51,150 bases of DNA, taken from positions 1-51,150 of IMG/VR virus record IMGVR_UViG_3300044653_000021, one strand, 5' to 3'. Below are positions 17,283 to 34,510 of the stretch, piece after piece. The position numbers were made by a program, and so were the translations under genes. This DNA is from a virus (lineage: Duplodnaviria; Caudoviricetes). A model generated the notes under the pieces. It was not told where the DNA came from. It ran no database searches and was given only the letters and a program-made list of their open reading frames with translations. Position 1 is the stretch's first letter; each line of letters opens with the position of its first letter.

Positions 17283-17317
17283 AATCAAGACTACAATTCA
17301 AAGCGGAGGATAATACA

Positions 17318-18790: not shown

Positions 18791-19001
18791 ATTTTGTTAG
18801 TGATTTGATTAATTATTATTTCTTGATATATATTTTTTCATTTAATAAAATTAATCATTCCATTAATATCAAATCCATCGGGTACCCACATTCGATTTCG
18901 AGCACCTTTGAAAATAGGGTACAGAGCCAGTTCTCAGCGCGTTTCTCTGTGGGGATGGTTAACCCTTTTGTTTCCTATACTTTACACAGAGCAAAATTCA
19001 C

Positions 19002-19031
19002 TTGACAGGAGCCACAGCGTAGTCATACACT
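19002..19031 (+). promoter_or_regulatory. sigma70-like promoter
   Basis: TTGACA-18 nt-TACACT upstream of the HNH gene. Confidence 0.5.
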
Positions 19032-19069
19032 GCTCTAGGCACCTTACGCCTCTGGTGAGATTATACAAA

Positions 19070-19477
19070 ATGCCTCAAATGTCAGTGAATACGGAGATTG
19101 TTAAAACAAATCGTCTTAAAGTAAACTACCGTATGCTTGCGGTAATGATGCTTGGTACTGCCTGTGTACAGTGTGGATACTTTGACGATATTCGAGCACT
19201 TGAGTTAGATCATATATTCGATGATGGTAAGATCGAACGTTCTGCATTTTCACCTAGAGTAATACAAAAAATGATCTGTGACGCATTCAAATATCGAGCA
19301 CATGATGCTATTCGAGAGATTCGTTATCGTTATCAAGTTCTTTGTGGTAACTGCCACAATATTAAGACATACGAAAATAATGCCAATAATATATTGGTAC
19401 AGGCATCAAACATGGGTTGTATTCAGCATGTACGTTCCATTATGGAATCTGTACAGTGTATGAAAGAGTGGAATTAA
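19070..19477 (+). CDS. HNH endonuclease
   Basis: CVQCG..D.RALELDHI...YQVLCGNCHNIKT; start moved to MPQMS downstream of the promoter. Confidence 0.8.
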   Translation: MPQMSVNTEIVKTNRLKVNYRMLAVMMLGTACVQCGYFDDIRALELDHIFDDGKIERSAFSPRVIQKMICDAFKYRAHDAIREIRYRYQVLCGNCHNIKTYENNANNILVQASNMGCIQHVRSIMESVQCMKEWN

Positions 19478-19977
19478 TGCCAATTTATCACAAGATTTGC
19501 ATTATTTGTCAACATAAGTTTAAGGCTCTTAGACTTAATCGGCTTTACTGTTCCAAGGCATGTAGTAATCGTACTAGATATCTGCCACAGGAATTAGTAG
19601 AGAGCCTTATACAAAGAAATGCAATGTATACATTAAAAGCAACAGGATATGTTGCTATGGTGACAGATAAGGAAGGATATGCTACTACTGTAGATGCCTC
19701 TGCGGAGAGCATAACAGAAGAGCATCCTTTAGGAAAAGAAGAAGGATTACTTATTGCTGCTGCATTAGTAGCAAAAGACGAACGAGAAGCAGAAAATAGA
19801 AGAAAACAGAAGGAAATTGAGGATAAAAAGCTACAAGAACAAGAACAACAAAAATCCTTAGAGAGTAACTCGGGATTTTCTACAGTTAATGAAGATGATG
19901 TTAATCTCATTAACAAAGTACGAAAGCCACCACAAAATACGCTACAGAAATACAAAATTCGTCCGATAGGAGGATAA
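19477..19977 (+). CDS. zinc-finger protein with a coiled-coil C-terminus
   Basis: CIICQHKF...YCSKAC; start moved to MPIYH (TAATG coupling). Confidence 0.6.
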   Translation: MPIYHKICIICQHKFKALRLNRLYCSKACSNRTRYLPQELVESLIQRNAMYTLKATGYVAMVTDKEGYATTVDASAESITEEHPLGKEEGLLIAAALVAKDEREAENRRKQKEIEDKKLQEQEQQKSLESNSGFSTVNEDDVNLINKVRKPPQNTLQKYKIRPIGG

Positions 19978-19981
19978 AGTC

Positions 19982-20137
19982 ATGTCCGTTCAATGGGGCA
20001 GTATGAAAATAATTCCACTGCAAACATCTTCTCTTACGAAGAAAAAGATTCTAAAAGGCTTCGTAAATGCTATTATCTGGCAAGCCGTGATGTTTGTTGT
20101 TATTTGGTTCGTTGTAGAATATTCTAGTTTAAGGTAA
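19982..20137 (+). CDS. small membrane protein (51 aa)
   Basis: read by eye; AGGAGG RBS; hydrophobic AIIWQAVMFVVIWFVV. Confidence 0.5.
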   Translation: MSVQWGSMKIIPLQTSSLTKKKILKGFVNAIIWQAVMFVVIWFVVEYSSLR

Positions 20138-20156
20138 AAGACAAGGAGAAAAATAA

Positions 20157-20360
20157 ATGAAGAAAAAAAGATTATCTACATCTCCTGAATGGGGTACAGA
20201 GAAACATTTAGTACATTTTAGTTTTACGTTATCAGAAAAAGATAGTGTAGAACTTAAAAGATTAGTAAAAAAAGCAAACAGAACAAGATGTCAGTATTTG
20301 AGATTTATAGTACAATCTTGGATTCAAGAACAACTTTGGCTTGATAGTTATCATCAATAA
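20157..20360 (+). CDS. ribbon-helix-helix DNA-binding protein
   Basis: HFSFTLSE...LKRLVKK.NRTRCQYLRFIV CopG/Arc-like pattern. Confidence 0.65.
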   Translation: MKKKRLSTSPEWGTEKHLVHFSFTLSEKDSVELKRLVKKANRTRCQYLRFIVQSWIQEQLWLDSYHQ

Positions 20361-20433
20361 ATTCCCTACAAGGGCCGCTAGGCCGTACGGGCGGGATAGC
20401 TATCATTACTATTATTTTACAATGGATTGACTA

Positions 20434-20841
20434 ATGCTTTCACAACTAAAACTCCTTGTTAATATCCTCCGAGATATTGATAGTAATCCATCACAGAGTA
20501 TGATGTTTTATACTGGCGGTTCGTATAAACAACATCTAAGTAACCCAAACTCCAGCCCACCACCGAGTCCGGATTGTAGATGGATACTAATCGTAGAGGC
20601 CCTACAACACATAGACACCAGCAATCCAGATGCTACCAGAGATATTAGTCACAAAGAAGATCACCATGAAGTTCTACGAAAGTTAAACGCTGGCTGGCAA
20701 GAGACACAGCATCTTTGTTGGCATTCACATGATCATCATTTTCATATAAACTTTCACCAATATGTGTTATGTCCCGTGACGTGTTTGTATGAGATAATTG
20801 AGTATCTTGAGAAAGTGATAAAGGAGAAATATATTGTATGA
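20434..20841 (+). CDS. hypothetical His-rich protein
   Basis: 135 aa ORF. Confidence 0.5.
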   Translation: MLSQLKLLVNILRDIDSNPSQSMMFYTGGSYKQHLSNPNSSPPPSPDCRWILIVEALQHIDTSNPDATRDISHKEDHHEVLRKLNAGWQETQHLCWHSHDHHFHINFHQYVLCPVTCLYEIIEYLEKVIKEKYIV

Positions 20842-21068
20842 GTGATTATGGATTTAATACAAACAACAAACCATCTACAAATACGCCCTTACTAAAGGAA
20901 CGAAACATCCTCATCTGTACTAATCGCTTCTGCCACAATGTACATGAGTACGCTATTAACACAGTAGACCAAAACAACAATCCCCTTGAGTTCTGTCCAG
21001 ATTGTAAGAAACGTCTCGGGAAGAGTATTAGTCAAGAACAACCACATTTTGTATTGACGGGAGCCTAA
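20838..21068 (+). CDS. small zinc-ribbon protein
   Basis: CTNRFC...FCPDC; AAGGAG RBS. Confidence 0.55.
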   Translation: MSDYGFNTNNKPSTNTPLLKERNILICTNRFCHNVHEYAINTVDQNNNPLEFCPDCKKRLGKSISQEQPHFVLTGA

Positions 21069-21368
21069 ATGCCAACAGACTACAGTATAATGAAGAATCG
21101 TTCTGACTTAACAGACAAGCTAATTAAGTCTCACTTTACAAATACTGAAATTACACATATCTGTATTCGCTTGTTTGCTTATATGGAAACAACCACCACC
21201 CACCCAGACAGGCGGACATTTTGGGAGTATGTAGAAAAAATAATTTCAGAAAAAGAGTGTACTCAATTATCCTTGCAAACTCCTGAAAATCAATCAGTTA
21301 TATACCCTGATTTTACCACACCGGGAATAGTCTCAAAGATTCTCCTTGACAATCCCAAAGCCATCTGA
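21069..21368 (+). CDS. hypothetical protein
   Basis: 99 aa ORF with GGAG RBS. Confidence 0.5.
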   Translation: MPTDYSIMKNRSDLTDKLIKSHFTNTEITHICIRLFAYMETTTTHPDRRTFWEYVEKIISEKECTQLSLQTPENQSVIYPDFTTPGIVSKILLDNPKAI

Positions 21369-21374
21369 TAATCT
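21346..21374 (+). promoter_or_regulatory. sigma70-like promoter
   Basis: TTGACA-17 nt-TAATCT with extended -10 TGn. Confidence 0.65.
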
Positions 21375-21481
21375 AGTCTTGTCTTTGGGGAAAGACATAA
21401 ATCCTCCCGCTGGCCGCGACGGAATAAATCGCGGCACTTTTCAGAGTACCCTGAACAACAGGATATTCTGAAAGGTCTAAC

Positions 21482-21898
21482 ATGATAACACTTGAAAGAC
21501 TAAAAGAATTTAATATGACTCCACAATATATGGCGGGATTGTTTGATGGTGAGGGAAGTGTAGGAGTTCATTTACAGAAAAAGAAAAATTATCTCATACT
21601 GAGAATGACTTTAACACAGAAAGATCCAACTATTCTATATTTTATAGCAGGTAAATTTCCTGTTGATAGAATATTTATGAATAATATAGTTAATCATGTA
21701 TATCAAGCAGAATGGAGAAATGAAAAAGCTCTTGATCTACTTAATTATATTAAAAATGATTGTATTATAAAATACAATCAAGTTCAAATGGCTTTAAAGT
21801 TCATTAGTATCTACAGATCACATACTCAAGTAGATAATGATGAAAAGTGGTTACTACGTGAAACTTTAAAAAAAGAAAAAGAAGTAAATATACATTAA
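21482..21898 (+). CDS. LAGLIDADG homing endonuclease (single motif, free-standing)
   Basis: YMAGLFDGEGSV motif, LTQKD, C-terminal IIKYNQ; lower GC than its neighbour. Confidence 0.85.
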   Translation: MITLERLKEFNMTPQYMAGLFDGEGSVGVHLQKKKNYLILRMTLTQKDPTILYFIAGKFPVDRIFMNNIVNHVYQAEWRNEKALDLLNYIKNDCIIKYNQVQMALKFISIYRSHTQVDNDEKWLLRETLKKEKEVNIH

Positions 21899-21921
21899 AC
21901 TAAAAAGGAGCAACAAATAAT

Positions 21922-22509
21922 ATGTCTACCGCCACACAAACACCAACCCAACCACTAACCCGTACTGAAACTTTTGATATTGCTTATGGTCTTAAGACCA
22001 AGACCGACAAGGATGGTAATCCTGTCCTTGAAAATGGTAAGCCCGTAACGGAAGCAGAAATGCTTACGGATGTAAAGAAAGCAGAAGAACTAAGCGAAAA
22101 GAATTTGTTTGCTGGTACTACTATTCAAGTCCGTACTGATTATCCTTCAAGCTGGGATGGATTACTTGCCTTTGCTGAGAAGGAATGGAAAAATGAAGAT
22201 GGTAGTGTCCGTCCGGCAGAGGATGTGAAGGCAGAAATTGTTAAACTCTTTAACAATGGTGCCAGTGGCAAGGTAATGAACCGTCTCCGGGCTATTGCTA
22301 CGAAGCAGGATGAAAAGGGTAATTTCGTCCTCACTGGTGATGTTCTTGATCTTACTAACGAGATTACCAGTGGTAGCAAGCGAGTGTTCTTGACTGAGGA
22401 ACAAAAGGCTTGGAAGTCTTTGTCTAATCTTCCGGCGGCTATTAAGGATAGTATGTGGAAGGCGTATTTGTCTGCCACCGGGAAAGATTATTACGTTCCG
22501 GTGGAGTAA
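21922..22509 (+). CDS. hypothetical protein, probably highly expressed
   Basis: 195 aa, AAGGAG RBS, promoter upstream and terminator downstream. Confidence 0.7.
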   Translation: MSTATQTPTQPLTRTETFDIAYGLKTKTDKDGNPVLENGKPVTEAEMLTDVKKAEELSEKNLFAGTTIQVRTDYPSSWDGLLAFAEKEWKNEDGSVRPAEDVKAEIVKLFNNGASGKVMNRLRAIATKQDEKGNFVLTGDVLDLTNEITSGSKRVFLTEEQKAWKSLSNLPAAIKDSMWKAYLSATGKDYYVPVE

Positions 22510-22578
22510 TTGAGATTGTAGGTTTACCATATAATCAAGATCACTAGAGTATATGTGATCTTTCCTATAATGTTGTAC

Positions 22579-22612
22579 AGGGTACATATAGCAATATATG
22601 TACCCTTTTTTA
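22579..22612 (+). terminator. intrinsic terminator
   Basis: agggtacatata-gcaa-tatatgtaccct followed by a T-run. Confidence 0.85.
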
Positions 22613-22639
22613 TTTTACAAAAACAAAGGAGAAAAGAAC

Positions 22640-22822
22640 ATGGCCAAAGCACTATCCGCAGTTGCTAAACTAGCAGCTAATGCAATTAACGAATTACAAC
22701 GTAATCCATTGTTTGATCGTATCGTGTTACATGATAAGAAGATTAATTACACCGCTATCGCTTATCATGGAGATAGGTGTGATGGAACGGATATTGTGGT
22801 ATTGAAAAATAATAATTGTTAG
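22640..22822 (+). CDS. hypothetical protein
   Basis: start moved to MAKALS (AAGGAG RBS). Confidence 0.55.
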   Translation: MAKALSAVAKLAANAINELQRNPLFDRIVLHDKKINYTAIAYHGDRCDGTDIVVLKNNNC

Positions 22823-22895
22823 CATTTCTTGTATGGTATAAGATATATGGAAATCCATAGGTGCTTCTATGGCTTTCTACATATCCTATAACTTA

Positions 22896-22958
22896 TTGAA
22901 AACAAAGCAGATATTCTTAGATATTCCTGTAGACAACTTTCCAGATTTTCTCTAAACT
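22896..22958 (+). promoter_or_regulatory. TTGAAAACAAAG box (IHF-site-like) followed by a promoter
   Basis: box at 22896-22907; TAGACA-17 nt-TAAACT from 22930. Confidence 0.5.
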
Positions 22959-22983
22959 CAAAAGATTGGAGTGTGTGTTCTTT

Positions 22984-23526
22984 ATGCCCTACCGACGACG
23001 CCCATCATGGCTAGATTCTTCTCCTACTACTACAAAAGTCTCTATCCACTGGTCTAGTAAATCCAGTGCCTTTGCTATTAAATTCTCCGATACAAAGAAC
23101 TGGAATCAGATGCAGATACTTATTCAGTATCTTAAGAATATTCCCTACGGAGAACGAGACTATGATCCAGAAACTAAAGTTTGGTTCCTAATCGAGAAAT
23201 ATATCGAACCATTTAAGGAAATGGTTTCATTAATGAACCAATTCTTTTCTCTCGATTTCACGCCAAAACCGACAGAGCAAACAAACCAAGCCGTGTTTAT
23301 TCCTGTTGATGTATATCTCGATAAATTCAAAAATTTAACCGGACATGATATTAAAGGTATTGAATATCCCGTAGCCAGAAAACAATATCTACGATGGTTA
23401 ATGATTAACCACCCGGACAAGAAACCGGAGAATCATATTCTTGTCCGTGATGTAAATGAATGTTGGTCGGCTCTTGAATTAAATTATTTTAAAACGAAAA
23501 AGGAGACGGAGTATGCTAGTACTTAA
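22984..23526 (+). CDS. J-domain (HPD) co-chaperone fused to an N-terminal HARP-like domain
   Basis: ARKQYLRWLMIN-HPD-KKP...VRDVNECWSAL fits J-domain helices II-III; RDYDPETKVW resembles the HARP motif. Confidence 0.65.
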   Translation: MPYRRRPSWLDSSPTTTKVSIHWSSKSSAFAIKFSDTKNWNQMQILIQYLKNIPYGERDYDPETKVWFLIEKYIEPFKEMVSLMNQFFSLDFTPKPTEQTNQAVFIPVDVYLDKFKNLTGHDIKGIEYPVARKQYLRWLMINHPDKKPENHILVRDVNECWSALELNYFKTKKETEYAST

Positions 23527-23698
23527 AATAACAAAGAGAAATTTTGATAAAGCAATAAAATTATCAAAAAAGAAAATTATGATTTTATCTAAATGGCCAA
23601 AGGAATTTTCAAACAAATATTATAATGCAAAAACCAGAAAACAACGTGCTATTATAGTAGGAAAAGTTATTGATGCTTATATAAAAGGTGACTTTTAA
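23513..23698 (+). CDS. small basic hypothetical protein
   Basis: 61 aa, GGAG RBS. Confidence 0.45.
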   Translation: MLVLKITKRNFDKAIKLSKKKIMILSKWPKEFSNKYYNAKTRKQRAIIVGKVIDAYIKGDF

Positions 23699-23699
23699 T

Positions 23700-23882
23700 A
23701 TGCGAATTGACCTACATAACCTTCCCTACTCTCCTCCATATGAATATTGGTGTTATAATTGTGGTACTTGTAATTTATGTTTCTGTGTCACAGATAATTG
23801 TTTAGGTTGTGGTAGTGATAAAATTATAAAAGATGAATTAGGTGGATTAGATTTAGACAAATTAAGGAGCGAATACGAATGA
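23700..23882 (+). CDS. small zinc-ribbon protein
   Basis: CYNCG...CLGCGS. Confidence 0.55.
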   Translation: MRIDLHNLPYSPPYEYWCYNCGTCNLCFCVTDNCLGCGSDKIIKDELGGLDLDKLRSEYE

Positions 23883-24604
23883 CAGAATCAACAAACTTAA
23901 CAGTAAAACCTAAGATATCTCTAGGCTTCAAAAAAGGTATCGCCGCTGTTCGTGAGCAAACAGAACAAAAATTAAAAGAACTAGATCCAAAAACAGTCCC
24001 CAATCGTTTAGGTATTGTCTTTGATGACAGTGGCAGTATGAGCGGTGAAGCCATTACCAATGCTCACAGTGCTGTGAAAAACTTCACAGCATCCTGTGAC
24101 TTCAATACCACTAGTATCTGCCTCTACCCGCTTAACATTGACCCTAAACCATTAACCGTAGACTACGATTTGCTTAATCTCTTTGTACTTGGGATAAAGG
24201 CAGGTGGAGGAACGCCTTTGTATGGTAAGTTAGACTTGATGATAACCAACGAGTCTATTACAAGAGGAGTAGTTTTCAGCGATGGTAGTCCGACAGGTAG
24301 TAAGTTAATTGGTCATAGCGAAAGCTGGGATAGTAAACCAACGGATTTTGCTATTGGCGTTATTAAGAAATATCAAGAAAAAGAGATTCCAATAGATACA
24401 ATTTTTATTGGTGAAGCCTACGATAACACTAGTGGTGGTTATGCAGAAATGAAGAAAATTGCAGAAATGACTGGCGGGACATTTATTCATTTCAAAGATA
24501 GTCAAAGTCTTAGTAGTGGCCTAAAGTATCTATCCCCGCGATATAGAGCATTGTTGAGTAATCCGGAAATAAAAGAAAGAATACAGAGAGGAGAAACAAT
24601 ATGA
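23879..24604 (+). CDS. von Willebrand factor A (vWA) domain protein
   Basis: MIDAS DDSGSM, GGGTPL, VFSDGSP, IDTIFIG and IAEMTGGTF motifs. Confidence 0.85.
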   Translation: MTESTNLTVKPKISLGFKKGIAAVREQTEQKLKELDPKTVPNRLGIVFDDSGSMSGEAITNAHSAVKNFTASCDFNTTSICLYPLNIDPKPLTVDYDLLNLFVLGIKAGGGTPLYGKLDLMITNESITRGVVFSDGSPTGSKLIGHSESWDSKPTDFAIGVIKKYQEKEIPIDTIFIGEAYDNTSGGYAEMKKIAEMTGGTFIHFKDSQSLSSGLKYLSPRYRALLSNPEIKERIQRGETI

Positions 24605-24753
24605 ATCCAGTAGATGAAATCAACGACAATATCCCCTGTCCCGAATGTGGGCAAGATCCATGTATTTGTGATATAATCGAAGTTGATTATTTTATCGATG
24701 ATGAAGATTTCTACACAGACGACGAAGAATCCGAGGATGAAATTATCCCATGA
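24601..24753 (+). CDS. small, very acidic Cys-motif protein (50 aa)
   Basis: read by eye: CPECGQDPCIC followed by a D/E-rich tail; ATGA-coupled to both neighbours. Confidence 0.65.
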   Translation: MNPVDEINDNIPCPECGQDPCICDIIEVDYFIDDEDFYTDDEESEDEIIP

Positions 24754-25883
24754 CAGAATCCTATACACCAGAACAAACAACCAACACTTTGGCTCTTGTC
24801 CGTAAACTAATCGGTCTTGGCATCCAAGCCAAGCCTATTGGTGTAGAACAAGGGCCAGTAGTAACGGCATATTTCTTTGAACTCGACCAAGGGGAAAGTC
24901 TTAGTAAATTTCTCAAACGTAGTGAGGACTTTGCCCTTTCCTTGGGAGTGGACAAAGTAATTACACAACGAATAAAGGACAAAGTAGTAATCTTTATCCC
25001 AAATAAAGAACGAAAAATTGTAGATTTTAAGGATGTTCTCTATTGGTACATGAACGATGAAAAAGTAAAAGAAATGGAAATCCCTGTACCACTAGGAGTA
25101 GACTTTCATGGTAATAAGAGTGCTTTTGATCTTGCAGCTTGTCCTCATGTACTTCTTACTGGTAGTACGGGCTCCGGAAAGAGTGTCTATGAAGCAGCTA
25201 TATTATCGAGTCTTGGGTACTACTTTAATCCTAGTGAACTTAATATGTATTTGGTTGACACTAAAAAATTAGATTTACCTTTATTTAAGACCCTGCCACA
25301 TGTTTTAGATGTGGCAGATGACTTGGACAAATTTCACAATATGATTAACACAATCATGTTAGAAATTCGTCGTCGGAATAGTATGTTACAAAATGCACAG
25401 GTACGGAATATTCAATCTTATCATAAAATGATGGGTGGGAAAGAAAGCCTTCCATATATTATTCTTATGTTAGATGAATTCGGTTATCTTATTAAATTAG
25501 ACGAAGAAGCTCGTAAGGAGGATAAAGAGAAATATGAAGATATTCCTAGGGTTATGTCCAGAATCCAGACTGCCGCGGGCATTGCCAGAGCAGCAGGAGT
25601 TCATATTATCGCCTGTACTCAAAGAGCAGATGTTAAAGTTATTAACGGAACCATAAAAACAAACTTGCCTTGCCGCATCGCACTTAGATGTACAAGTAGG
25701 GTTGATTCTCAAACTATTCTTGACACCGGAGGAGCTGAGAATCTTCTTGGAAAAGGAGATATGTTAGTAAAATATCCAGAAAACGACATATTAGTAAGAT
25801 ATCATGGTCCTTACGTAGACATGGCAGATATACAACAACTAACAATGAATTATGATATGATTAAGGGGAGTATGAGGAGTTAA
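24750..25883 (+). CDS. ftsK: FtsK/SpoIIIE motor-domain protein (alpha and beta domains only)
   Basis: GPVVT.Y alpha-domain motif, PHVLLTGSTGSGKS, LMLDEF, ARAAGVHIIACTQR, GAENLLGKGDML. Confidence 0.9.
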   Translation: MTESYTPEQTTNTLALVRKLIGLGIQAKPIGVEQGPVVTAYFFELDQGESLSKFLKRSEDFALSLGVDKVITQRIKDKVVIFIPNKERKIVDFKDVLYWYMNDEKVKEMEIPVPLGVDFHGNKSAFDLAACPHVLLTGSTGSGKSVYEAAILSSLGYYFNPSELNMYLVDTKKLDLPLFKTLPHVLDVADDLDKFHNMINTIMLEIRRRNSMLQNAQVRNIQSYHKMMGGKESLPYIILMLDEFGYLIKLDEEARKEDKEKYEDIPRVMSRIQTAAGIARAAGVHIIACTQRADVKVINGTIKTNLPCRIALRCTSRVDSQTILDTGGAENLLGKGDMLVKYPENDILVRYHGPYVDMADIQQLTMNYDMIKGSMRS

Positions 25884-25884
25884 T

Positions 25885-26082
25885 ATGGATATAAAAGGTA
25901 AAAGTATGATTGTAAGAAACTCTCAAATAATTCAGTTTTATATAGAAATTGAGTCTGCTCATCGTTATGAATTTTTAGAAGAACTATTACATAAATTAGG
26001 TTATGCTTATTATCTTCCACCTGCACGAGATAAATTACCAAAAACACTTGAAGAAATTGAATGTCTTTTAGAGGATAAATGA
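25885..26082 (+). CDS. hypothetical protein
   Basis: 65 aa, GAGGAG RBS. Confidence 0.5.
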   Translation: MDIKGKSMIVRNSQIIQFYIEIESAHRYEFLEELLHKLGYAYYLPPARDKLPKTLEEIECLLEDK

Positions 26083-26340
26083 AATACATAATGCTCCAAC
26101 ATCGCCAAAATAAGAACAAAGTCCCAATAATCTTCCCTAACCACCTAGTACACATTACTGTCTGGGACACACTCTGTCTTTCCCCCTGAATTTGGCCTAC
26201 AATACGACTGCATTTCTGCTGGTGAATGTACTATAACCTGCACCGCTGTCCACGGTAATAGCACCACACTCAATCTAACTTTCGCTGATGGTGACAGTGC
26301 TGTAATAGATATGATGGATTACTTACATGGTTTAGAGTAA
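26079..26340 (+). CDS. small protein split by a +1 frameshift at CCC-TGA (programmed frameshift, pseudogene or homopolymer error)
   Basis: frame 0 MKYIMLQ...PIIFPNHLVH...LSP* ends at 26189; the +1 frame continues PEFGLQYDCISAGEC...HGNSTTLNL...DYLHGLE* to 26340. Confidence 0.55.
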
Positions 26341-26415
26341 TTATTCTCGTTTTAGTACTTGTCTAGTCCATCGGGTGAAACCCGTATGCCATCTGAAGAA
26401 ATCTTGTGCAAAGTG

Positions 26416-26469
26416 TTGAAAACAAAGGACATTCCCCGCTTGCGTCGTCTAGGGGTACTCCTGTAACCT
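26416..26469 (+). promoter_or_regulatory. TTGAAAACAAAG box followed by a promoter for the candidate ncRNA
   Basis: box at 26416-27; TTGCGT-18 nt-TAACCT from 26440. Confidence 0.45.
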
Positions 26470-26476
26470 TAGTCAA

Positions 26477-26786
26477 ATGGGGCAGCCTACCCACATACTA
26501 CAGATAAAAAGTACGGCCGTCAGTCTTCTAGACCGACAGCCATTTTCAACGTGCACTGTAGCGGCGGCAGGAGTCGGACCTACGATCCTCCGGATTAGAA
26601 TCCGGTGCTGGTCGGCAACGGGGGCCTCGCGAAAGGTAATTCACCCAATGCGCTCCGCTCAGCTTTCCGCAGTCTCCGGAGCGTAAGGGAAAAGGCTGAG
26701 CACCCGCAAAAGTACACGGCCTGCGTCCCTCACAGAACTGACAAGTAATCTTTCGCTGGCGGGCTGTATACAGGGAAGTCACCCCT
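26477..26786 (+). ncRNA. candidate GC-rich structured ncRNA (~310 nt), family unknown
   Basis: GC island in an AT-rich genome; end-to-end pairing, internal hairpins, pseudoknot-like interleaved helices at 26649-26701; promoter upstream. Confidence 0.55.
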
Positions 26787-26796
26787 CTCTAAGTCA

Positions 26797-26849
26797 TTGA
26801 AAACAAAGAGAAAAAATCCCTTGACTACAGTTCCGTCTACCGATAGACT
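26797..26849 (+). promoter_or_regulatory. TTGAAAACAAAG box, sigma70 promoter and overlapping palindromic operator
   Basis: box at 26797-26808; TTGACT-17 nt-TAGACT from 26821; gtcta-ccga-tagac palindrome at 26835-26848. Confidence 0.6.
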
Positions 26850-26940
26850 AGAGTCCTACCCACAGTTTCCCATTACAATAAAATTAACCTCTCGTAAACG
26901 TAATGGAAACTGAGTTATTATTGATCCTAGAGATACCATT

Positions 26941-27120
26941 ATGGCAAAGCAACCAGCGAAGAAATCCGGTTGGACAGTAGTCTCTGCCCGCGTCCCGCCG
27001 GACCTGAAAGATTGGATTTTACAAGAGTATAAAAAACCAGGTTGTATTAATGATGTTATTCTTCTACTATTACAAAGATTAAGAAATGGAAGAATACTTG
27101 GAATTAAGTTAGAATCATAA
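26941..27120 (+). CDS. Arc/RHH-like DNA-binding protein (59 aa)
   Basis: read by eye: WTVVSARVPPDLKDWI...INDVILLLLQR; absent from the ORF track. Confidence 0.6.
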   Translation: MAKQPAKKSGWTVVSARVPPDLKDWILQEYKKPGCINDVILLLLQRLRNGRILGIKLES

Positions 27121-27144
27121 CAACCACCACCCGGAGTCTACCCT

Positions 27145-27726
27145 ATGCCAAGTCCTAATGAAACAGACACATTACCCACGTCTGAATCAATAATAATCTG
27201 TGCCTTTAACTGCACAGAACAAAATATAAAACATTGTCGTAAGTGTCAACGACCATTTTGTATAATGCACTGCAATACATTCTCTCCAAACTTCTGCAAA
27301 GAATGCTTTAAAGACCTAGCAGTAATCTCAGATAAATTTAAACGAACATTCGATTATATAGGTGATAATGGCCAACTATATATCCGAACAGAAGAACGTG
27401 TTCGTTATTATCTTGATGGCATGGACTGGCCATTCGTTACACCGTGGATACATGATCTAAGTGATGATGAGCTTAAGAGTCTGTGGGTTTTTCATCATTA
27501 CATAATGAAACTTATTGAAACAGAGAATGACACTCGTAATATAGAAAAAGCCCGCAAATTACGTGAAAGCCCGGTTCCTCGTCTTATAAGCAGTACTACG
27601 GTGAAAAGTACTAGAGTAACGAAGCCTTCTGTACCAGAGACACCGGAGAGTATGCGTGCAAGGCTTAAGAAATTAGGTATTCCGGATGTTACTATAGATG
27701 CGATGATAAAGGCGATGATACCATGA
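27145..27726 (+). CDS. multi-Cys zinc-finger protein (AN1/B-box-like N-terminus)
   Basis: CAFNC...HCRKCQRPFCIMHC...FCKEC. Confidence 0.6.
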   Translation: MPSPNETDTLPTSESIIICAFNCTEQNIKHCRKCQRPFCIMHCNTFSPNFCKECFKDLAVISDKFKRTFDYIGDNGQLYIRTEERVRYYLDGMDWPFVTPWIHDLSDDELKSLWVFHHYIMKLIETENDTRNIEKARKLRESPVPRLISSTTVKSTRVTKPSVPETPESMRARLKKLGIPDVTIDAMIKAMIP

Positions 27727-27908
27727 ATGGGAAATTCTTGGTTTTAATAGAAGATAAAAAATATGGTTCTTCTGCTGAAGAACATTATACAGTAAAACAA
27801 GTATTAAAATATCTTGAAAATGTTGTAGAAGAATTAGATATTATAGATGTTCAAGAAATAGATTCAGTTCATACAACTATAAAGAGTTTTTTAGGTGATT
27901 ATATATGA
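27723..27908 (+). CDS. hypothetical protein
   Basis: 61 aa, ATGA coupling on both sides. Confidence 0.5.
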   Translation: MNGKFLVLIEDKKYGSSAEEHYTVKQVLKYLENVVEELDIIDVQEIDSVHTTIKSFLGDYI

Positions 27909-29134
27909 CCCCCGAAGAAGCAAGTAATCGTTATCACTGGTGCAAATACGACAAGGCCACTAACACAGTAGAATTGTATCTTGATCACTATATGTTAAGT
28001 GGCCTACGTCTATGCGAAGCACGTTTTGCTTTTGAACATTTATTGTGGGTAAAACAACGATCAGCGTTACAGGAAGATACGACATTAAGATTCCGGAAAC
28101 CTTGGTTTTTAGATTTCGGAGAATATATCCACTGGTGTTTAGAACAATTTTATAATCATTTTAAGCACAACAAACAAGCCCCATCTGTGGATTTCTGGAT
28201 GCAGCAGTGTAAGACGAAGTGGGAATTAATGAAGATGGATGAGTATAAAGATTATCATGTAAAGGCAGACGCAAAGAAGTATGATGAAGTACATGGCTGG
28301 GATGGAGTAGCGACACTTCTTATTCAATATTATGTTTTCTATATGGATATGCGACTCCGAGTAATTGATACGGAGATTACGTTTGGGCATAATAAAGAAG
28401 TTTTTATAGGTAACACATTGTTAGATTACGGTAACGGTTGTTTTGATTGTTATTATTGTGAACAACCATTAAGTGTAAATTGTTATCTAACTGGCCGCAT
28501 AGACCTACTAGTAGACAACGGCTATAAAATTGGTCCCATAGATCACAAAACAACCCATCGTTTTGATGGTTTCGAGCATCAGGATTTCAATCCACAGGAT
28601 GCTATGACAGGGTATATTTATGCTACACATGAAATACTTAGAAAATACTATGGTATGAATAATAGTATTGATGGTAGTAGAGTATTCACTAAAGATGGTG
28701 GTTTAATGGCTGCACCAGAGTGTAAAGGTGGTTGGATATTCCATATATCCTCCTGTACTCCATCCGTGCCAAGAGATAAGACACAAAAACAAGGTCCACG
28801 TTTTAAGACGACGCCAATAGACAAAACATTATCCCAACTAGAGGATTTTAAGAAACGTCAACTATCCTCTTTTAAGAGAGTAGCAGAACTATTATTTAAC
28901 GACAAAATGCCAGAATGGAACACGACGGCTTGTAATAATATTTTCTTCCGTCAATGTGAATACAAGCCAATCCACGAACAACCAAGTGAGCAATGGCCGG
29001 ATATGATTAATAGATTTTATCAAATAAGTAACCCTAAAGATGTCTGGGATACTCGTAATATGGCAAAGAAAGACAACAATGAAAAACTATCTACCACCAC
29101 AACTATCCAAACAACGAAAGAAACGAACGTCTAA
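27905..29134 (+). CDS. PD-(D/E)XK exonuclease (RecB/Cas4-like)
   Basis: FGEYIH, TEITF, LTGRIDLLV...IDHKTT, Q...Y and C-terminal C......C.Y motifs. Confidence 0.8.
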   Translation: MTPEEASNRYHWCKYDKATNTVELYLDHYMLSGLRLCEARFAFEHLLWVKQRSALQEDTTLRFRKPWFLDFGEYIHWCLEQFYNHFKHNKQAPSVDFWMQQCKTKWELMKMDEYKDYHVKADAKKYDEVHGWDGVATLLIQYYVFYMDMRLRVIDTEITFGHNKEVFIGNTLLDYGNGCFDCYYCEQPLSVNCYLTGRIDLLVDNGYKIGPIDHKTTHRFDGFEHQDFNPQDAMTGYIYATHEILRKYYGMNNSIDGSRVFTKDGGLMAAPECKGGWIFHISSCTPSVPRDKTQKQGPRFKTTPIDKTLSQLEDFKKRQLSSFKRVAELLFNDKMPEWNTTACNNIFFRQCEYKPIHEQPSEQWPDMINRFYQISNPKDVWDTRNMAKKDNNEKLSTTTTIQTTKETNV

Positions 29135-29336
29135 TAAAGGATTTTTAACACAACAAGATTGGCTTTACCATTGTTATCATCTTGCAGACAATAATCCCGT
29201 AATGAAAGATTGTAAGGTATGTGATTGGCATGATGGTTTAAGTGATAAGACAAAATATAATTTATTACCAGCAGCGATGTTAAAGGAGATAAGTAATGTC
29301 AAAAAAGAAAATAGTAAAAAATTCGTGGAAGTCTAG
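29079..29336 (+). CDS. hypothetical protein (HC.H...CKVC)
   Basis: start uncertain; overlaps its neighbours. Confidence 0.4.
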   Translation: MKNYLPPQLSKQRKKRTSNKGFLTQQDWLYHCYHLADNNPVMKDCKVCDWHDGLSDKTKYNLLPAAMLKEISNVKKENSKKFVEV

Positions 29337-29586
29337 GACATGTGTTAACTGTAATAAAAGATTTTCAACTATAAATAAATTTATTGAACATGCTAAAAGA
29401 CATGATATAAATACAAACAGTTTATCAAATCTAGTAGCTACTCCTAATTATGAAGAATTATACAGAAATTTAAAGAATGATAATAGTAGAAAGCGTTATG
29501 AAATAATCAACGACTGGATGAAATCTGTTGCTACTATTAATGATGCTATTGCTCATGCTATTGGTGATATTGGTGGGGGTAGATAA
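29296..29586 (+). CDS. C2H2 zinc-finger protein
   Basis: CVNCNKRF.....FIEHAKRH. Confidence 0.65.
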   Translation: MSKKKIVKNSWKSRTCVNCNKRFSTINKFIEHAKRHDINTNSLSNLVATPNYEELYRNLKNDNSRKRYEIINDWMKSVATINDAIAHAIGDIGGGR

Positions 29587-30389
29587 TGCCAGAAAATGAC
29601 CTACTAAAAGCCGCACTACAAACCCTAACAGGTTGTGTTGATGCTGCTACAGTGACCAACGTGGATAGGTTAAAAGTTGCTATCTGCGGTGATCCAAAGA
29701 CAGGAAAATCCTCCGTAATAGCCCGTACCGCACGTAAACCAGTAATATTTTATGATTTTGACGATCGGAAGGAAAGTATAGCAGGGATAGATGGAGTAAT
29801 AATTAAAACATTATTCGACAAGAATGACACAACTCCTACAGCATGGAGTGCTTTTGAGAGTGATTTGGGGACATTAGAATACTTAAAAGAGAAAAACGAA
29901 CTCCCCTTTAAAAGCATAGCTGTGGATAGTATTACTTTTCTTCGTAAATATGCAGAACATCAATTATTAAAAGATTCATCCGCATCTAGAGCAAAGTTTA
30001 AGATTGGAAGTACGGAATATTTAGTCCCGAAGGACTGGGATGCTGTTACTGGTGTACAACATATGTTGGAAACGATGTTCAATAGATTATTTAGTCTGAA
30101 CATTGACGTATATGCCACTTTCCACACCCGGCTTGAGAAAGATCAAAATAAATCAACAAAGACGGACATAGTATATAAGGACACTCTTACTATCGACCCG
30201 CCTAATTTGAAGATGCTTCTTCCAAAATTTAATGATTGTTGGCGTTCCTATGTAGATGGTGGAGTGTATCGAGTACAGGTTAAACCGGATTGGCAATTTA
30301 ATGCCGCGACTGTGTTAAAGAATCAAGGTGAAAACGAAGTTGCGGATATACAGAAGATGTTGGAGAAACATAATGGAAAAAAATCATAA
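29586..30389 (+). CDS. AAA_24 / Sak4-like recombination ATPase
   Basis: AICGDPKTGKS Walker A, IAVDSIT Walker B; lies between the exonuclease and the SSB. Confidence 0.8.
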   Translation: MPENDLLKAALQTLTGCVDAATVTNVDRLKVAICGDPKTGKSSVIARTARKPVIFYDFDDRKESIAGIDGVIIKTLFDKNDTTPTAWSAFESDLGTLEYLKEKNELPFKSIAVDSITFLRKYAEHQLLKDSSASRAKFKIGSTEYLVPKDWDAVTGVQHMLETMFNRLFSLNIDVYATFHTRLEKDQNKSTKTDIVYKDTLTIDPPNLKMLLPKFNDCWRSYVDGGVYRVQVKPDWQFNAATVLKNQGENEVADIQKMLEKHNGKKS

Positions 30390-30573
30390 AAGATGTAGAG
30401 CTTCTGTAATTAGAAAACTTGAAAGAATCTCTTATCTTATTTGTGAGATAGCATGTATAGATTGTCCTGAATCAAATACAGCAATAATAGAACAAGACTT
30501 AGCTACATTAAAACATTATACAGATATTATAAGGAGAAAATATAAATATAATGACACCCGAACAACTACGTAA
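30373..30573 (+). CDS. hypothetical protein
   Basis: start moved to MEKNH. Confidence 0.45.
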   Translation: MEKNHKRCRASVIRKLERISYLICEIACIDCPESNTAIIEQDLATLKHYTDIIRRKYKYNDTRTTT

Positions 30574-30715
30574 CTTAGTAAAGGAAGTTTGTAAGCGAGA
30601 TATCTCTACGAAACAAGCAGAGGCTTTTATGGATATCTTTAAAAATGAATATGATTTAGGACTAGCAAAGTTTAATCGTTCGTTTGTTGTATATCATTTT
30701 GGGAGTGAAAAATAA
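30551..30715 (+). CDS. hypothetical protein (54 aa, MTPEQLRNLV...)
   Basis: read by eye; below the track cut-off. Confidence 0.45.
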   Translation: MTPEQLRNLVKEVCKRDISTKQAEAFMDIFKNEYDLGLAKFNRSFVVYHFGSEK

Positions 30716-30716
30716 C

Positions 30717-30911
30717 GTGAAGATAACCATAGAAGAACAAATGCCTGATAGATATATAATTACAGGTGATAAAAATATTACTTTAAATTCTTTTAAAGAA
30801 TTTGAAGATTTTATAAGTAAAGAATATGGTTCTTTAACTCTATTTAAAGATTTACAAAATAGTATTTCTGATTTAGAAGATAGAATGCAGCAAATAAGAG
30901 AATTATTATAA
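30717..30911 (+). CDS. hypothetical protein
   Basis: GTG start with GGGAG RBS. Confidence 0.4.
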   Translation: MKITIEEQMPDRYIITGDKNITLNSFKEFEDFISKEYGSLTLFKDLQNSISDLEDRMQQIRELL

Positions 30912-30976
30912 GTTCTGCCTCGGCAGATAATTGCATGGAATAGCATAAAAATCCAAGAAACAAAAAAGGACCAACA

Positions 30977-31477
30977 ATGCCTAAGATGTCAGTGAATGCA
31001 GAAACACTCGAAGCACCGAAACCAGTAGCAGGTGGTTGGTATGATCTTCGTCTTAAGGGGATGACTATTAAGAAATCCCCTAAAGGACATAATATCGAAG
31101 CATACTTCACCACAGTTAACCAACCGACTGATACTAATGATAAGTTTGTTCTTTATCGAATGAATAATGGTTTTAGTCAGGGAACTGCTATGCAGGAATT
31201 GTGTCATGCTTTGGGTTTCCCGATGGAAATTGACGCTCAAGGACAAGCTAGTTTTCCTGGTGATTGGACATTAAAAGACCCAGCACAGCCGGATAATTGG
31301 GATTTGGCTCAGTATACAGGAGTATTACTCGGCAAGACCGGAAGTGCTGAGTTAGTAGTGGATAATTATCAGGGAAATGAAAAGAACGTAGTGAAACAAT
31401 GGAAGTGTAAGGTTCCTGATTGTCCTACTCGTTTCCCGAAAATTCGTCATCAAACGGATTTGATTGGGAAGAAGTAA
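30977..31477 (+). CDS. putative single-stranded DNA-binding protein (DUF669-like)
   Basis: PVAGGWYDLRL..., LLGKTG..EL..DNYQG..KNVVK OB-fold-like pattern; follows the Sak4-like ATPase. Confidence 0.6.
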   Translation: MPKMSVNAETLEAPKPVAGGWYDLRLKGMTIKKSPKGHNIEAYFTTVNQPTDTNDKFVLYRMNNGFSQGTAMQELCHALGFPMEIDAQGQASFPGDWTLKDPAQPDNWDLAQYTGVLLGKTGSAELVVDNYQGNEKNVVKQWKCKVPDCPTRFPKIRHQTDLIGKK

Positions 31478-31485
31478 TTAACTTT

Positions 31486-31570
31486 GCCGTTATGGTGGAA
31501 TTGGTATACACAAGGGACTTAAAATCCCTCGGCTTTGGCCATATGGGTTCGAGTCCCATTAACGGCACCA
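31486..31570 (+). tRNA. trnL: tRNA-Leu (anticodon TAA)
   Basis: acceptor stem gccgtta/taacggc plus ACCA, D-loop TGG, anticodon arm aggga-cttaaaa-tccct, long variable arm, GGTTCGAGTCC T-arm. Confidence 0.95.
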
Positions 31571-31644
31571 ACATTACCATAATGTAAGATATTTATGGTA
31601 AGTATCCCCCACACACGTCGGCATAACGTGCTCCATAGATATTA

Positions 31645-31684
31645 ATAACCACTCTTATCATTGTGGGGAGGGTGGTTGTTTTTC
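31645..31684 (+). terminator. intrinsic terminator downstream of the tRNA
   Basis: aaccactctt / gagggtggtt stem followed by a T-rich tract. Confidence 0.6.
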
Positions 31685-31700
31685 TTATAAAAAGGAGATT

Positions 31701-31916
31701 ATGGCACATAATTTAGAGGAAATTAATTTTATTCATGGAAGAAATAGTTTAGTGCAAGGTTGTACAATACGTAAAAGTAATATATTAAATAATGCTAATT
31801 ATTATGAATTAACATGTTTAACTTGTAATCAAACAGGATATTATGAAAGTGAATATCATCAAGGTAAAGCAGCAGGTATGCATTTTGCTGATAAAGATAA
31901 ATATCCAATAGAATGA
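31701..31916 (+). CDS. small zinc-binding protein
   Basis: CLTC...H motif, AAGGAG RBS. Confidence 0.5.
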   Translation: MAHNLEEINFIHGRNSLVQGCTIRKSNILNNANYYELTCLTCNQTGYYESEYHQGKAAGMHFADKDKYPIE

Positions 31917-32101
31917 AAAGAAAACGTAAGTTTGGAGAAACTCTTACTAGAATTTTAGCTAATCCACTTATACAACCATTAGCTAAAATTGTATTAAGAA
32001 ATGAATTAGAAAGAGAAATAAAACGAAGTAAGGGAGGTTGTCCAAAAGGATATAAACATGACACAAGAACAATATCTAAAACGTTTTCAAGAAATAATTG
32101 A
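31913..32101 (+). CDS. small basic hypothetical protein
   Basis: 62 aa, ATGA coupling. Confidence 0.4.
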   Translation: MKRKRKFGETLTRILANPLIQPLAKIVLRNELEREIKRSKGGCPKGYKHDTRTISKTFSRNN

Positions 32102-32366
32102 TGAGATGTATAGTGTTACAAAAGCTAAAAATTCAGATTATGCAACACCAAAAGAGGCACTACGTAATTTTAAGATGTTCGGTGCTTTTGGTGTTCTTGT
32201 TAGAATATCAGATAAAATATCAAGACTTAGAACAGTATTAGAAGATAAACGTGAATTTGCTGTAAAAGAAACTGCTTTTGATACCGTGACAGATATGGCA
32301 GTATATAGTGTAATTCTTAGAATTATAATGGAAGAAGAAGCTAAAGAAAATGAGTTTAATAAATAA
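32058..32366 (+). CDS. nucleotide-modification-associated domain 1 (DUF1599-like) protein
   Basis: KAKNSDY....LRNF...GVLVRISDKISRL...E...DT..D.AVY motif. Confidence 0.75.
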   Translation: MTQEQYLKRFQEIIDEMYSVTKAKNSDYATPKEALRNFKMFGAFGVLVRISDKISRLRTVLEDKREFAVKETAFDTVTDMAVYSVILRIIMEEEAKENEFNK

Positions 32367-33477
32367 CTTCGGTCCCGAAACAAGTCCTATTTGGGTCATA
32401 CTTGATTCTCCTTATGACGGAGATTCGGATATTGACCCAGTTACACAAATTGATAAATTAGGAATAATATTGAGTGGTGGTTATGGATATAATTTTAAAA
32501 AGATTTGGAAGATGGGTGGTCTTTCTCTTAGTGATGTTCACATTCGATCTAATCGCCCTTGTATCGGAGCATCGTATGTTAAAGAGAATGTACTTAGCAA
32601 TCTTCTTGGTGATATTGACAAATATCATCCTACTTTTATTGTTCCACTTTCTGATGAAGTTTTGAATTATTTAATCCCACACACAACACAAGCCAAAGAA
32701 AAGAATTCATCCCTTGGAAAGTGGGCTGGTTCCTTATTAACATCTAAATATATTTCATATCCACATTATATAATAGGGAGCCAGCCACCAGATTGGGTTA
32801 CGAAGAATTGGGCCTATAATGAAATCCAAGCCTTCATAGATTTTGGACATGTCCGTGAGGAATTTGAATACTGGACAAAATATGGAACTCTTAATCCACT
32901 ACCTAGACGTAATCTTATTACCCAACCATCTTATTCCGATCTTGTTGGTTATTTGCATGACTGTCTTAATGTTAGTATGGTGTCAGTCGATATTGAGACT
33001 ATCCGACCTAAGAAGGGTAGTACTTATTATAATATTAATTGCGGGTATCCTTACACTATTGCTCTTGCTAAGTCTCCCAAAGATGCAATAAGTTTCTCTT
33101 TCTGGGATTATACACCAGAACAATGTGTACAGATTTGGAGAATGTTAAATGAGATTCTTAGTAAAGTGCCTCAGATTGGGCAAAACTATTTTCTCTTTGA
33201 TAGTCATTATCTTGAAGCATTGGGATTTAGAATTTGTTTATCTTCGTGTTTCGACACCCTTATACGACACCATATATTATGGCCATCCCTTAAGCACGCA
33301 CTTCATTTTCAGACAAGACAATACACAAGAGAACCGTACTACAAAGATGAGGGACGAAACTTCAATGTAAAACGTAAAACACAGTTCATGCTATACAATG
33401 CCAAAGATGCAGCCGTTACTTTTGAAATTTATGAAGAACAAGAAAAAGAGTTTAAAGAACGTCCACATATTAGGTAA
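32350..33477 (+). CDS. DNA polymerase A N-terminal subunit: degenerate uracil-DNA-glycosylase-like domain plus 3'-5' exonuclease
   Basis: GP..SPIWVILDSP UDG-like start; ExoI VSVDIET, ExoII QNYFLFD, ExoIII YNAKDA. Confidence 0.8.
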   Translation: MSLINNFGPETSPIWVILDSPYDGDSDIDPVTQIDKLGIILSGGYGYNFKKIWKMGGLSLSDVHIRSNRPCIGASYVKENVLSNLLGDIDKYHPTFIVPLSDEVLNYLIPHTTQAKEKNSSLGKWAGSLLTSKYISYPHYIIGSQPPDWVTKNWAYNEIQAFIDFGHVREEFEYWTKYGTLNPLPRRNLITQPSYSDLVGYLHDCLNVSMVSVDIETIRPKKGSTYYNINCGYPYTIALAKSPKDAISFSFWDYTPEQCVQIWRMLNEILSKVPQIGQNYFLFDSHYLEALGFRICLSSCFDTLIRHHILWPSLKHALHFQTRQYTREPYYKDEGRNFNVKRKTQFMLYNAKDAAVTFEIYEEQEKEFKERPHIR

Positions 33478-33643
33478 AATATTACAACATCAAGCACAAG
33501 GTCCGGATACTTATATAGAAGATTACATCCAACCACCCGGCATACGCGCAACATGTCACGGTCATTTAGAACCACTTGGTTTTAAAAGTATAGAAGATTT
33601 ACAAAAACACTGGCGGGAAGAACATGAAGGGAGACAGAAATGA
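33398..33643 (+). CDS. hypothetical protein
   Basis: 81 aa ORF; start uncertain. Confidence 0.35.
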   Translation: MPKMQPLLLKFMKNKKKSLKNVHILGKILQHQAQGPDTYIEDYIQPPGIRATCHGHLEPLGFKSIEDLQKHWREEHEGRQK

Positions 33644-34095
33644 TTGTTGGTATAGTTGGAAGTGAAGAAGTTAAATTTACTGAACTAGGTAAACAAAATG
33701 CCCTTCATTATATTAGACAAATAGTAGCTGATCCAGAAGTTACTGAAGTTGTCAGTGGTGGTTGTCATCTTGGCGGTATAGATATATGGGCAGAGGAAAT
33801 AGCCAAAGAATATAACAAAAAGATGACAGTATTTTTACCAACAGGACATTATTGGTCTACAGGATTTAAGCCACGAAATGAAAAAATTGCAAATAAAAGT
33901 GATATTGTATATTGTATCACTGTAGATAAATTACCTGAAAATTATAATGGTATGAAATTTGATTTATGTTATCATTGTGAAAGAAATTCAGTTATATCTT
34001 ATCCAGATCATGTAAAATCTGGTGGTTGCTGGACGATGTATTATGCTATAGATCATGGTAAAAAAGGTAAATTAATTGTAGTACATAATTATTAA
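33640..34095 (+). CDS. SLOG-superfamily (YspA/DprA-like) nucleotide-binding protein
   Basis: IVGIVGS, VVSGG..GGID.WAE, RNEKIA..SD and SGG.WT..YA motifs. Confidence 0.7.
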   Translation: MIVGIVGSEEVKFTELGKQNALHYIRQIVADPEVTEVVSGGCHLGGIDIWAEEIAKEYNKKMTVFLPTGHYWSTGFKPRNEKIANKSDIVYCITVDKLPENYNGMKFDLCYHCERNSVISYPDHVKSGGCWTMYYAIDHGKKGKLIVVHNY

Positions 34096-34104
34096 AGGAG
34101 TTAT

Positions 34105-34392
34105 ATGGCTAAGGACATTCTCGGAAACGAACTTAAAGTAGGTGATTACGTACATTTTACTTTACCATCCAATCAAGTACTAGCTAAAATAACTGAATTA
34201 TCAGAAGGCGGCTTACTTGGTGCTAGTGCTATTGTACAGAACAAGGCACAAGGTATAGTACTACCCGGTACAGTTACATTTACAATAGAAGCTAACGCAC
34301 AGTTTGACCCGAATAACAAAGTTATTATGGTAAACAAAGCCGTCATTCCACCTGATTCGCCGTTATTGACGAAGGAAGGGAAGCCAAATTGA
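34105..34392 (+). CDS. hypothetical protein (SH3/KOW-like start)
   Basis: KDILGNELKVGDYV motif; AAGGAG RBS. Confidence 0.6.
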   Translation: MAKDILGNELKVGDYVHFTLPSNQVLAKITELSEGGLLGASAIVQNKAQGIVLPGTVTFTIEANAQFDPNNKVIMVNKAVIPPDSPLLTKEGKPN

Positions 34393-34393: not shown

Positions 34394-34510
34394 ATGTCCG
34401 GCGTTAGAAAACCTATAGAAGAACGTTTTGCCGTTAAGTATAAAATAGAAGATAAAGGATATTTAACTCCATTAAGTGAGTATAAAATTGCAAAACTTAA
34501 TAACAAGTAA
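34394..34510 (+). pseudogene. possible remnant of an HNH endonuclease N-terminus (38 aa)
   Basis: MSGVRKPIEERFAVKYKIEDKGYLTP resembles phage HNH N-termini but stops before any nuclease motif. Confidence 0.35.

Follow-up and report, generated by a model that had tools for sequence, protein, structure and literature searches.

The GC-rich island at positions 26477-26786 of the soil phage genome analysed here is probably a recently captured, strain-variable, moron-like insert in which the 3' end of a non-coding unit of foreign origin is preserved in shortened form. According to this reading, an insert of about 409 nt (26331-26739) would have been acquired in a hot spot between an FtsK-like gene and the early recombination operon. 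The insert would be composed of two parts: phage-type sequence with a degenerate duplicate of a promoter box, hereafter P1 (26331-26514), and, in 26515-26739, the 3'-terminal part of a longer GC-rich transcription unit, shortened internally and still carrying its terminator. The source unit would be an apparently non-coding one carried by a different replicon of these soils (the host or some other mobile element), and the piece may have arrived by illegitimate recombination at short AGTAAT repeats. The captured core would lie reversed behind P1, with no evident promoter of its own in its sense (minus) direction, and a putative phage transcript from P1 (plus strand) would run antisense to the source RNA and give the early operon a long leader.

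The window, that is the whole stretch of DNA analysed, is a complete virus record of 51,150 bp with a GC content of 37.6%. Both of its ends carry late and structural genes on the minus strand, among them the large terminase (13069-14958, minus) and a major-head-like protein (6609-7562, minus) of the late block, and the early and replication genes form a plus-strand block running from 17318 to 38531. Pfam and PHROG scans assigned a vWA-like gene (23879-24604) and an FtsK/SpoIIIE-like gene (24750-25883) upstream of the island and, downstream on the plus strand, a PD-(D/E)XK nuclease (27905-29134) and a Sak4-like annealing protein (29586-30389); the island is separated from the latter two by a 59-aa gene (26941-27120, plus), then a 193-aa gene, of the early operon. 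No integrase family was found among the 30 ORFs compared with PHROGs or the 20 compared with Pfam, so that the phage appears not to be temperate as far as the ORFs scanned are concerned, and none of these would supply the integrase expected beside an attP that includes a host RNA gene's 3' end. Other features of the window include a family-A DNA polymerase split into an exonuclease part (32350-33477) and a polymerase part (34476-36014), with two small ORFs lacking a clear family (33640-34095 and 34105-34392) in the approximately 1 kb between them, and a 211-aa ORF (37471-38106) with a C-terminal Cpn10 (GroES-like) domain (Pfam E = 3.2e-09). Where the late genes of the minus strand give way to the early genes of the plus strand, there is an ORF-poor divergent region (16241-17318) with a local GC peak of 0.493 (16801-17100), the top promoter-like site of the promoter scan (16795-16822, TTGACA-16-TAGGAT with TG) and no Rfam match.

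The sharp GC island seen in the first-pass annotation of this DNA is genuine: the bin 26401-26700 has a GC content of 0.543, the highest of the 170 bins of 300 nt, compared with 0.493 for the runner-up and 0.376 for the genome. The deviation is unevenly distributed, with 0.429 in 26331-26514, a segment of phage-like composition, 0.596 in 26515-26739 and 0.509 in 26740-26796.

The region was compared with public soil runs, X3, X4 (DNA), X5, X6 (RNA library/metatranscriptome), all used as assembled contigs only; X3 and X4 come from one year and one habitat, possibly from a single campaign. A phage variant 95-99% like the window is represented in X5 by an 893-nt contig (record 20) which aligns with 25512-25877, 26078-26330 and 26740-27003. 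This contig jumps from 26330 to 26740 and carries 7 other letters in place of the approximately 409 nt of 26331-26739, a segment to which no strand is assigned. The island is thus an insertion/deletion difference between close strains. That it was misjoined into the phage contig as an assembly chimera could be imagined, given that samples of this kind contain a more abundant sequence identical to its core, but the junctions are crossed without any difference by contigs of two additional runs, which come from other studies: one of X4 (record 13, 26227-26544) crosses the left junction and one of X3 (record 6, 26710-26944) the right one. The insert is therefore not an assembly artefact, and we regard a chimeric origin as exceedingly improbable.

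The GC-rich core of the insert (26515-26739, 225 nt, 59.6% GC), assigned to the minus strand on account of its terminator, is identical to two blocks of another element present in X3, X4 and X6. Its match to the window is confined to 26515-26667 and 26667-26739, where there are 0 differences, and it carries 209 extra nt at 26667, that is about 434 nt between the shared edges. The step in GC content coincides exactly with the identity block, and position 26739 is the right edge of both this block and the strain difference. The flanks of the other element are unlike the phage, A/T-rich before 26515 and GC-rich after 26739, as read from contig pieces and 30-letter loose ends (loose ends in the case of X3), and two 20-letter pieces of these flanks do not occur in the window. 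Its depth in X4 is 6.8, compared with 2.2-4.9 for the phage pieces. In X6 it forms a 911-nt contig with a depth of 19.9 against about 3.6 for the phage pieces, values to be read with the provision that contigs give no RNA strand, ends or level and that an RNA library can contain DNA. Over 26331-26514 and 26740-26872 there are 0 RNA contigs of X6, a gap in cover which proves nothing, and no RNA contig of X6 bridges P1 to the core.

The source of the core was not found by blastn against phages or against plasmids, neither of which gave a match. Exact patterns were found at 0 and 0 loci in two scans of bacterial and archaeal genomes and at 0, 1 and 5 loci in three scans of viral contigs, the latter being attributable to chance since similarity did not extend beyond the pattern. 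No diverged homologue of the island was found either among these phages, plasmids, viral contigs and bacterial and archaeal genomes or in the related loci described below.

A mobile element moving as a unit could also account for the perfect identity along the 225 nt, which speaks against the capture reading. The core could then be a small non-autonomous element, for example an internally deleted IS-type unit, inserted independently in the phage and elsewhere. Its sharp identity edges at 26515 and 26739, the unlike flanks in the two contexts and the internal difference of 209 nt agree with such an origin, as does the direct repeat AGTAAT found near both ends of the insert (26336-26341 and 26744-26749). 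These repeats, however, flank the 409-nt insert and not the 225-nt identity block; no terminal inverted repeats were seen in the inverted-repeat list, the core is present in a single copy in the phage, no transposase lies nearby and Rfam gave no match to IS-linked RNAs. Moreover, the right flank of the other context stays GC-rich, suggesting that the unit continues beyond 26739. An independently inserted mobile element is considered quite unlikely. Under the capture reading, the AGTAAT repeat may be the microhomology left by the recombination event.

A second strain difference lies nearby, as the X5 variant also skips the 200 nt of 25878-26077 and carries 4 other letters instead; the skipped stretch includes a 65-aa ORF (25885-26082) retrieved by tblastn in 0 of 67 related loci. 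Between the two differences, the frames 26079-26189 and 26149-26340, the second of which has no Pfam match, look like one small gene with a +1 frameshift at a C run near 26183. The X5 variant is one base shorter at this place, which would restore a single frame of about 86 aa (hand count), and the X4 contig runs through it without a gap, in agreement with the window.

The distribution of the island was further analysed through the neighbouring nuclease, which has 111 homologues, many of them on contigs of about 51 kb. Sixty-seven related loci (5 viral and 62 from metagenomes) were fetched with an alignment of 27 nuclease homologues. Using 26300-26950 as a query, blastn did not retrieve the island in any of them, the sole match being the P2 region (26783-26899) of one locus (L007); nhmmer with 26440-26800 matched 0 of the 67 loci at E<=10, and tblastn with both island ORFs and the two small upstream frames likewise matched none. 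When five near-complete related genomes were searched whole, only the box motif of the promoters gave matches. The homologue search proposed in the first-pass annotation therefore ended without an island in all 67 related loci and in the 95-99% identical strain alike.

The place of the island is occupied differently in these relatives. In L007 and L002, among the nearest relatives, the FtsK-like gene is followed by about 140-240 nt comprising one box-plus-promoter, then by the 59-aa gene. Among the 19 loci in which both flanking genes were located, the slot between the FtsK-like and 59-aa genes measures 175-517 nt in 17 and 1080 nt in the remaining two, which are one record present twice (L003/L037) and contain other small ORFs; it measures 1058 nt in the window. 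The variation in length and content of this slot points to a hot spot for accessory inserts, of which the island is one. The slot of about 1.08 kb in L003 (1842-2922) holds three small ORFs, one of which (about 2428-2625) exceeds the adjoining sequence in GC content. A conserved GC island upstream of the nuclease was considered in the relatives and rejected, the peak of L013 corresponding to small coding genes and that of L011 to a short GC-rich intergenic stretch whose sequence is unrelated.

Comparison with described RNA families gave a uniformly negative picture. With Rfam 15, whose families include RNase P, tmRNA, 6S, SRP, riboswitches, ribozymes, GOLLD, ROOL and HEARO, the only hit in the whole window at the gathering threshold was a tRNA-Leu at 31486, and lowering the threshold to E<=10 on 26300-26950 returned no match inside the island. 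The search suggested in the first-pass annotation was thus carried out and leaves the island outside any known family at either threshold. Restricting the E<=10 search to 26505-26745 returned only a tRNA (12.3 bits, cut-off 29) and the snoRNA sR32 (8.5 bits, cut-off 40). ARAGORN with default settings found no tRNA or tmRNA in the island, and with relaxed settings (-ps80 or -ps70 plus long introns) it gave forced models only. The absence of tmRNA and RNase P hallmarks had already been remarked from the letters; a comparison by eye with the motifs of RNase P, tmRNA, T-box and SRP found none that fits, and Rfam concurs. The weak tRNA signal does have some likeness to a genuine tRNA: it is a full-length model alignment on the minus strand (26625-26559) that ends shortly before the terminator and includes a credible T arm, and ARAGORN forces a tRNA-like fold there, only at the 80% threshold and with a 32-nt "intron". 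It differs by its score, which corresponds to E = 8.7 in a 241-nt search, by an "anticodon" loop of 6 nt and by the failure of 3 of the 7 acceptor pairs. The minus-strand sequence CCGGAUUCUAAUCCGG was also considered as an amber-suppressor anticodon arm and dropped, since its stem has 6 bp around a loop of 4 nt or, counted otherwise, 5 bp around one of 6 nt.

Two open reading frames overlap the island, one of 69 aa on the plus strand (26477-26686) and one of 78 aa with a GTG start on the minus strand (26546-26782), and neither is likely to be a gene. A small protein could be suspected because the stop codon of the 78-aa ORF (26546-48) lies only 2 nt before the terminator hairpin, and because the ATG of the 69-aa ORF at 26477 is about where a transcript from P1 would start, which would make it leaderless. 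On the other hand, no candidate homologue of the 69-aa ORF was retrieved among 5.8 billion proteins (37-121 aa), the 78-aa ORF had 0 matches among 1.84 billion representative proteins, and neither has a Pfam or PHROG match. The GC contents at the three codon positions are flat in both (0.57/0.59/0.57 for the 69-aa ORF and 0.57/0.65/0.54 for the 78-aa ORF), unlike those of the phage genes (about 0.50/0.33/0.29), and 13 of the 78 residues of the minus-strand ORF are arginine. We estimate that roughly 5% of frames would stay open over 80 codons at such a GC content, and the 209-nt difference, which is not divisible by 3, would disrupt either frame in the other element. A small protein gene on either strand is thus highly improbable, and translation of the 69-aa ORF, which the first-pass annotation had named as an argument against a non-coding RNA, finds no backing in homologues, families or codon-position bias. 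Together with the negative Rfam and ARAGORN results, the lack of homologues of the ORFs and their flat codon-position GC indicate that the island is most likely non-coding and outside every described RNA family.

The non-coding nature of the island does not make it a structured RNA of the plus strand. It had been described as an RNA of about 310 nt, which would be transcribed from P1, fold into a pseudoknot or two-state switch and possibly be ribozyme-like. The motifs on which this description was built do exist: the end-to-end pairings gcagcct (26482-88)/gggctgt (26761-67) and gtcagt (26519-24)/actgac (26737-42), the ccggat/atccgg hairpin (26590-26605), the interleaved 9-bp helices tgcgctccg (26649-57)/cggagcgta (26677-85) and ctcagcttt (26658-66)/aaggctgag (26692-26700), and the near repeat AAAAGTAC at 26507 and 26708 were all recovered. 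P1 also has the box architecture of the downstream promoter P2, and the lack of a match to known families would make such an RNA new. However, the minimum free energy of the plus strand is close to that of shuffled sequences, with z = -0.27 for 26470-26800, -0.60 for 26477-26786 (300 dinucleotide shuffles) and -0.83 in a further fold test, and the 4 stems of at least 9 bp counted in 26477-26786 (shuffle mean 2.33) are reached by 21% of 300 shuffles. Fold energy and helix counts are therefore at chance level for a large structured RNA, whether pseudoknot, switch or ribozyme.

The arrangement of the helices leads to the same conclusion. No nucleotide separates 26657 from 26658, the ends of two abutting 9-bp stems, and on geometric reasoning, as distinct from computation, both stems cannot form at full length together without a linker, which argues against an H-type pseudoknot in 26649-26700. 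The 209 extra nt of the other element fall at 26667, in the middle of this same interleaved arrangement. As for the end-to-end pairings, they are present as letters, but their outer arms (26482-88/26761-67) pair phage backbone across an insert that is missing in the close strain, and a hairpin at 26513-26543 would contain three A.C mismatches on the plus strand. Considering in addition the absence of the island from the 67 related loci and from the nearly identical strain, a plus-strand structured RNA is very unlikely.

The only clearly non-random structure in the island is an intrinsic terminator of the minus strand (26503-26543). It consists of a 14-bp hairpin (26543-26513) with three G.U pairs and a 3-nt loop, followed by UUUUU in the tail ACUUUUUAUC, and is the strongest terminator-like site within 16000-32000. 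The hairpin has an energy of -22.4 kcal/mol on the minus strand (z -7.8) compared with -12.6 on the plus strand, where the three G.U pairs become A.C mismatches at the same positions. It resembles Rho-independent terminators in its GC-rich stem, short loop and U run, the G.U pairs making its stability strand-asymmetric, and is peculiar in pointing against the whole plus-strand gene block (17318-38531). As read from a loose end, the flank of the other element has a U-A pair where the phage hairpin closes with U.G, and a U-rich run comes next there too, which places the end of the unit here, on the minus strand, in both contexts.

The terminator raises the question of a working small-RNA gene on the minus strand, a moron whose product, a shortened version of the RNA of the other element, would start upstream of 26739, end at the terminator (26543-26505) and act as a mimic, decoy or regulator. 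The strength of the terminator on that strand and the presence of the identical sequence in the RNA library X6 are in favour of such a gene. So is the fold of 26477-26786 on the minus strand (z = -2.1, a stability matched by 3% of the shuffles), but the fold z-values of -1.67 to -2.12 obtained for the island fall to -1.25 for the core alone, from which it follows that the excess is largely that of the terminator hairpin. The copy is also cut on its 5' side, the other element remaining GC-rich beyond 26739, and lacks the 209 internal nt. The promoter scan found no promoter-like site of the minus strand within 26545-26950. A promoter-like site further away (27249-27221, minus, TTGACA-17-TATTTT, 10/12), pointing leftward inside the 193-aa gene, could read in, although consensus matches of this kind are often due to chance (70 found against 57 expected). 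A transcript from this site would cross the 59-aa gene and P2 in antisense before reaching the terminator of the island. On balance, a functional small-RNA gene on the minus strand is judged unlikely.

The "boxed promoters" reported on both sides of the island correspond to genuine repeats. The box TTGAAAACAAAG occurs at 22896, 26416 and 26797, and three copies were reached in only 2 of 100 shuffles. P2 (26797-26849, plus) comprises the box (26797-26808), a TTGACT (26821-26826), a 17-nt spacer and a TAGACT (26844-26849), scores 9/12 and is the promoter of the operon of the 59-aa gene, the 193-aa gene, the PD-(D/E)XK nuclease and the Sak4-like protein; its box and hexamers are conserved in the relatives L007, L002/L010 and L018. 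P1 (26416-26469, plus) is a degenerate copy of this early-operon promoter located inside the strain-variable insert, with the box at 26416-26427, a -35-like TTGCGT (26440-45), an 18-nt spacer and a -10-like TAACCT (26464-69), as seen in an alignment with P2 and with L007, L002 and L018. It scores only 6/12 against the consensus by hand count and is absent from the list of the promoter scan, so that its activity is uncertain and it may be inactive. The sequence CCTACCCACA at 26486-26495 (plus) has a second copy at 26855-26864, just past the -10 of P2, and its position after both -10 elements marks the P1 segment as a diverged copy of the P2 region, the first transcribed bases included.

The third box (22896-22907) lies downstream of a strong terminator-like hairpin of the plus strand (22579-22606, 12 bp, followed by TTTTTTATTTT) and upstream of an ORF at 22966-23526; hairpin and box together may mark the limit of an operon controlled in the same way. 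Another contig of X5 shares only the box and -35 element of P2 (26789-26824) and is unlike the window on both sides, with GC-rich sequence downstream; the box may be common to further phages with other leaders.

The insert can be compared with two classes of known phage elements. Morons are independent transcription units added between conserved phage genes. They are treated in "The moron comes of age" (PMC3594210). The insert resembles them by its presence in one strain and absence from close relatives at the same slot, by its deviant base composition and its own intrinsic terminator, and by the other small inserts that the relatives hold in this slot. It departs from them by having neither a supported protein gene nor an evident promoter in the sense direction, P1 facing the opposite way, and by being a truncated, internally shortened copy of a longer unit in a phage that, judging by the 30 ORFs scanned, does not seem to be temperate.

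Examples of RNA regulators encoded by phages are the OOP RNA of lambda and the anti-sRNAs that EHEC prophages produce. Small, antisense and anti-sRNA regulators of phage origin are the subject of a review (PMC12197685). If P1 fires, its transcript would share with them a perfect complementarity, over about 225 nt, to an RNA abundant in the community. This complementarity would differ in origin, arising from the capture of a reversed fragment instead of the evolution of a short seed, and the transcript itself is putative. The source RNA would be at least 0.5 kb long, considering the approximately 434 nt between the shared edges, the GC-rich sequence beyond 26739 and the conserved terminator end. 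It is conceivable, at a low probability, that an abundant GC-rich RNA of at least 0.5 kb, non-coding and so far undescribed, carried by the host or a competing mobile element, supplied its 3' part as the core and would be disabled by the phage antisense RNA during infection. Within the capture reading, we estimate that a neutral passenger is somewhat ahead of a working antisense RNA directed against the source RNA.

The candidacy of this region as a new large phage ribozyme or riboswitch-like RNA does not hold up. The island provides instead a clean natural example of an apparently very recent capture of DNA by an uncultured soil phage, the 225-nt piece gained being identical to part of an apparently transcribed non-coding element of the same soils and lying in a slot that holds other small inserts in related phages. 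If the source is a host RNA, the insert would establish a host link for a widespread family of soil phages of about 51 kb and would offer a testable case of antisense capture.
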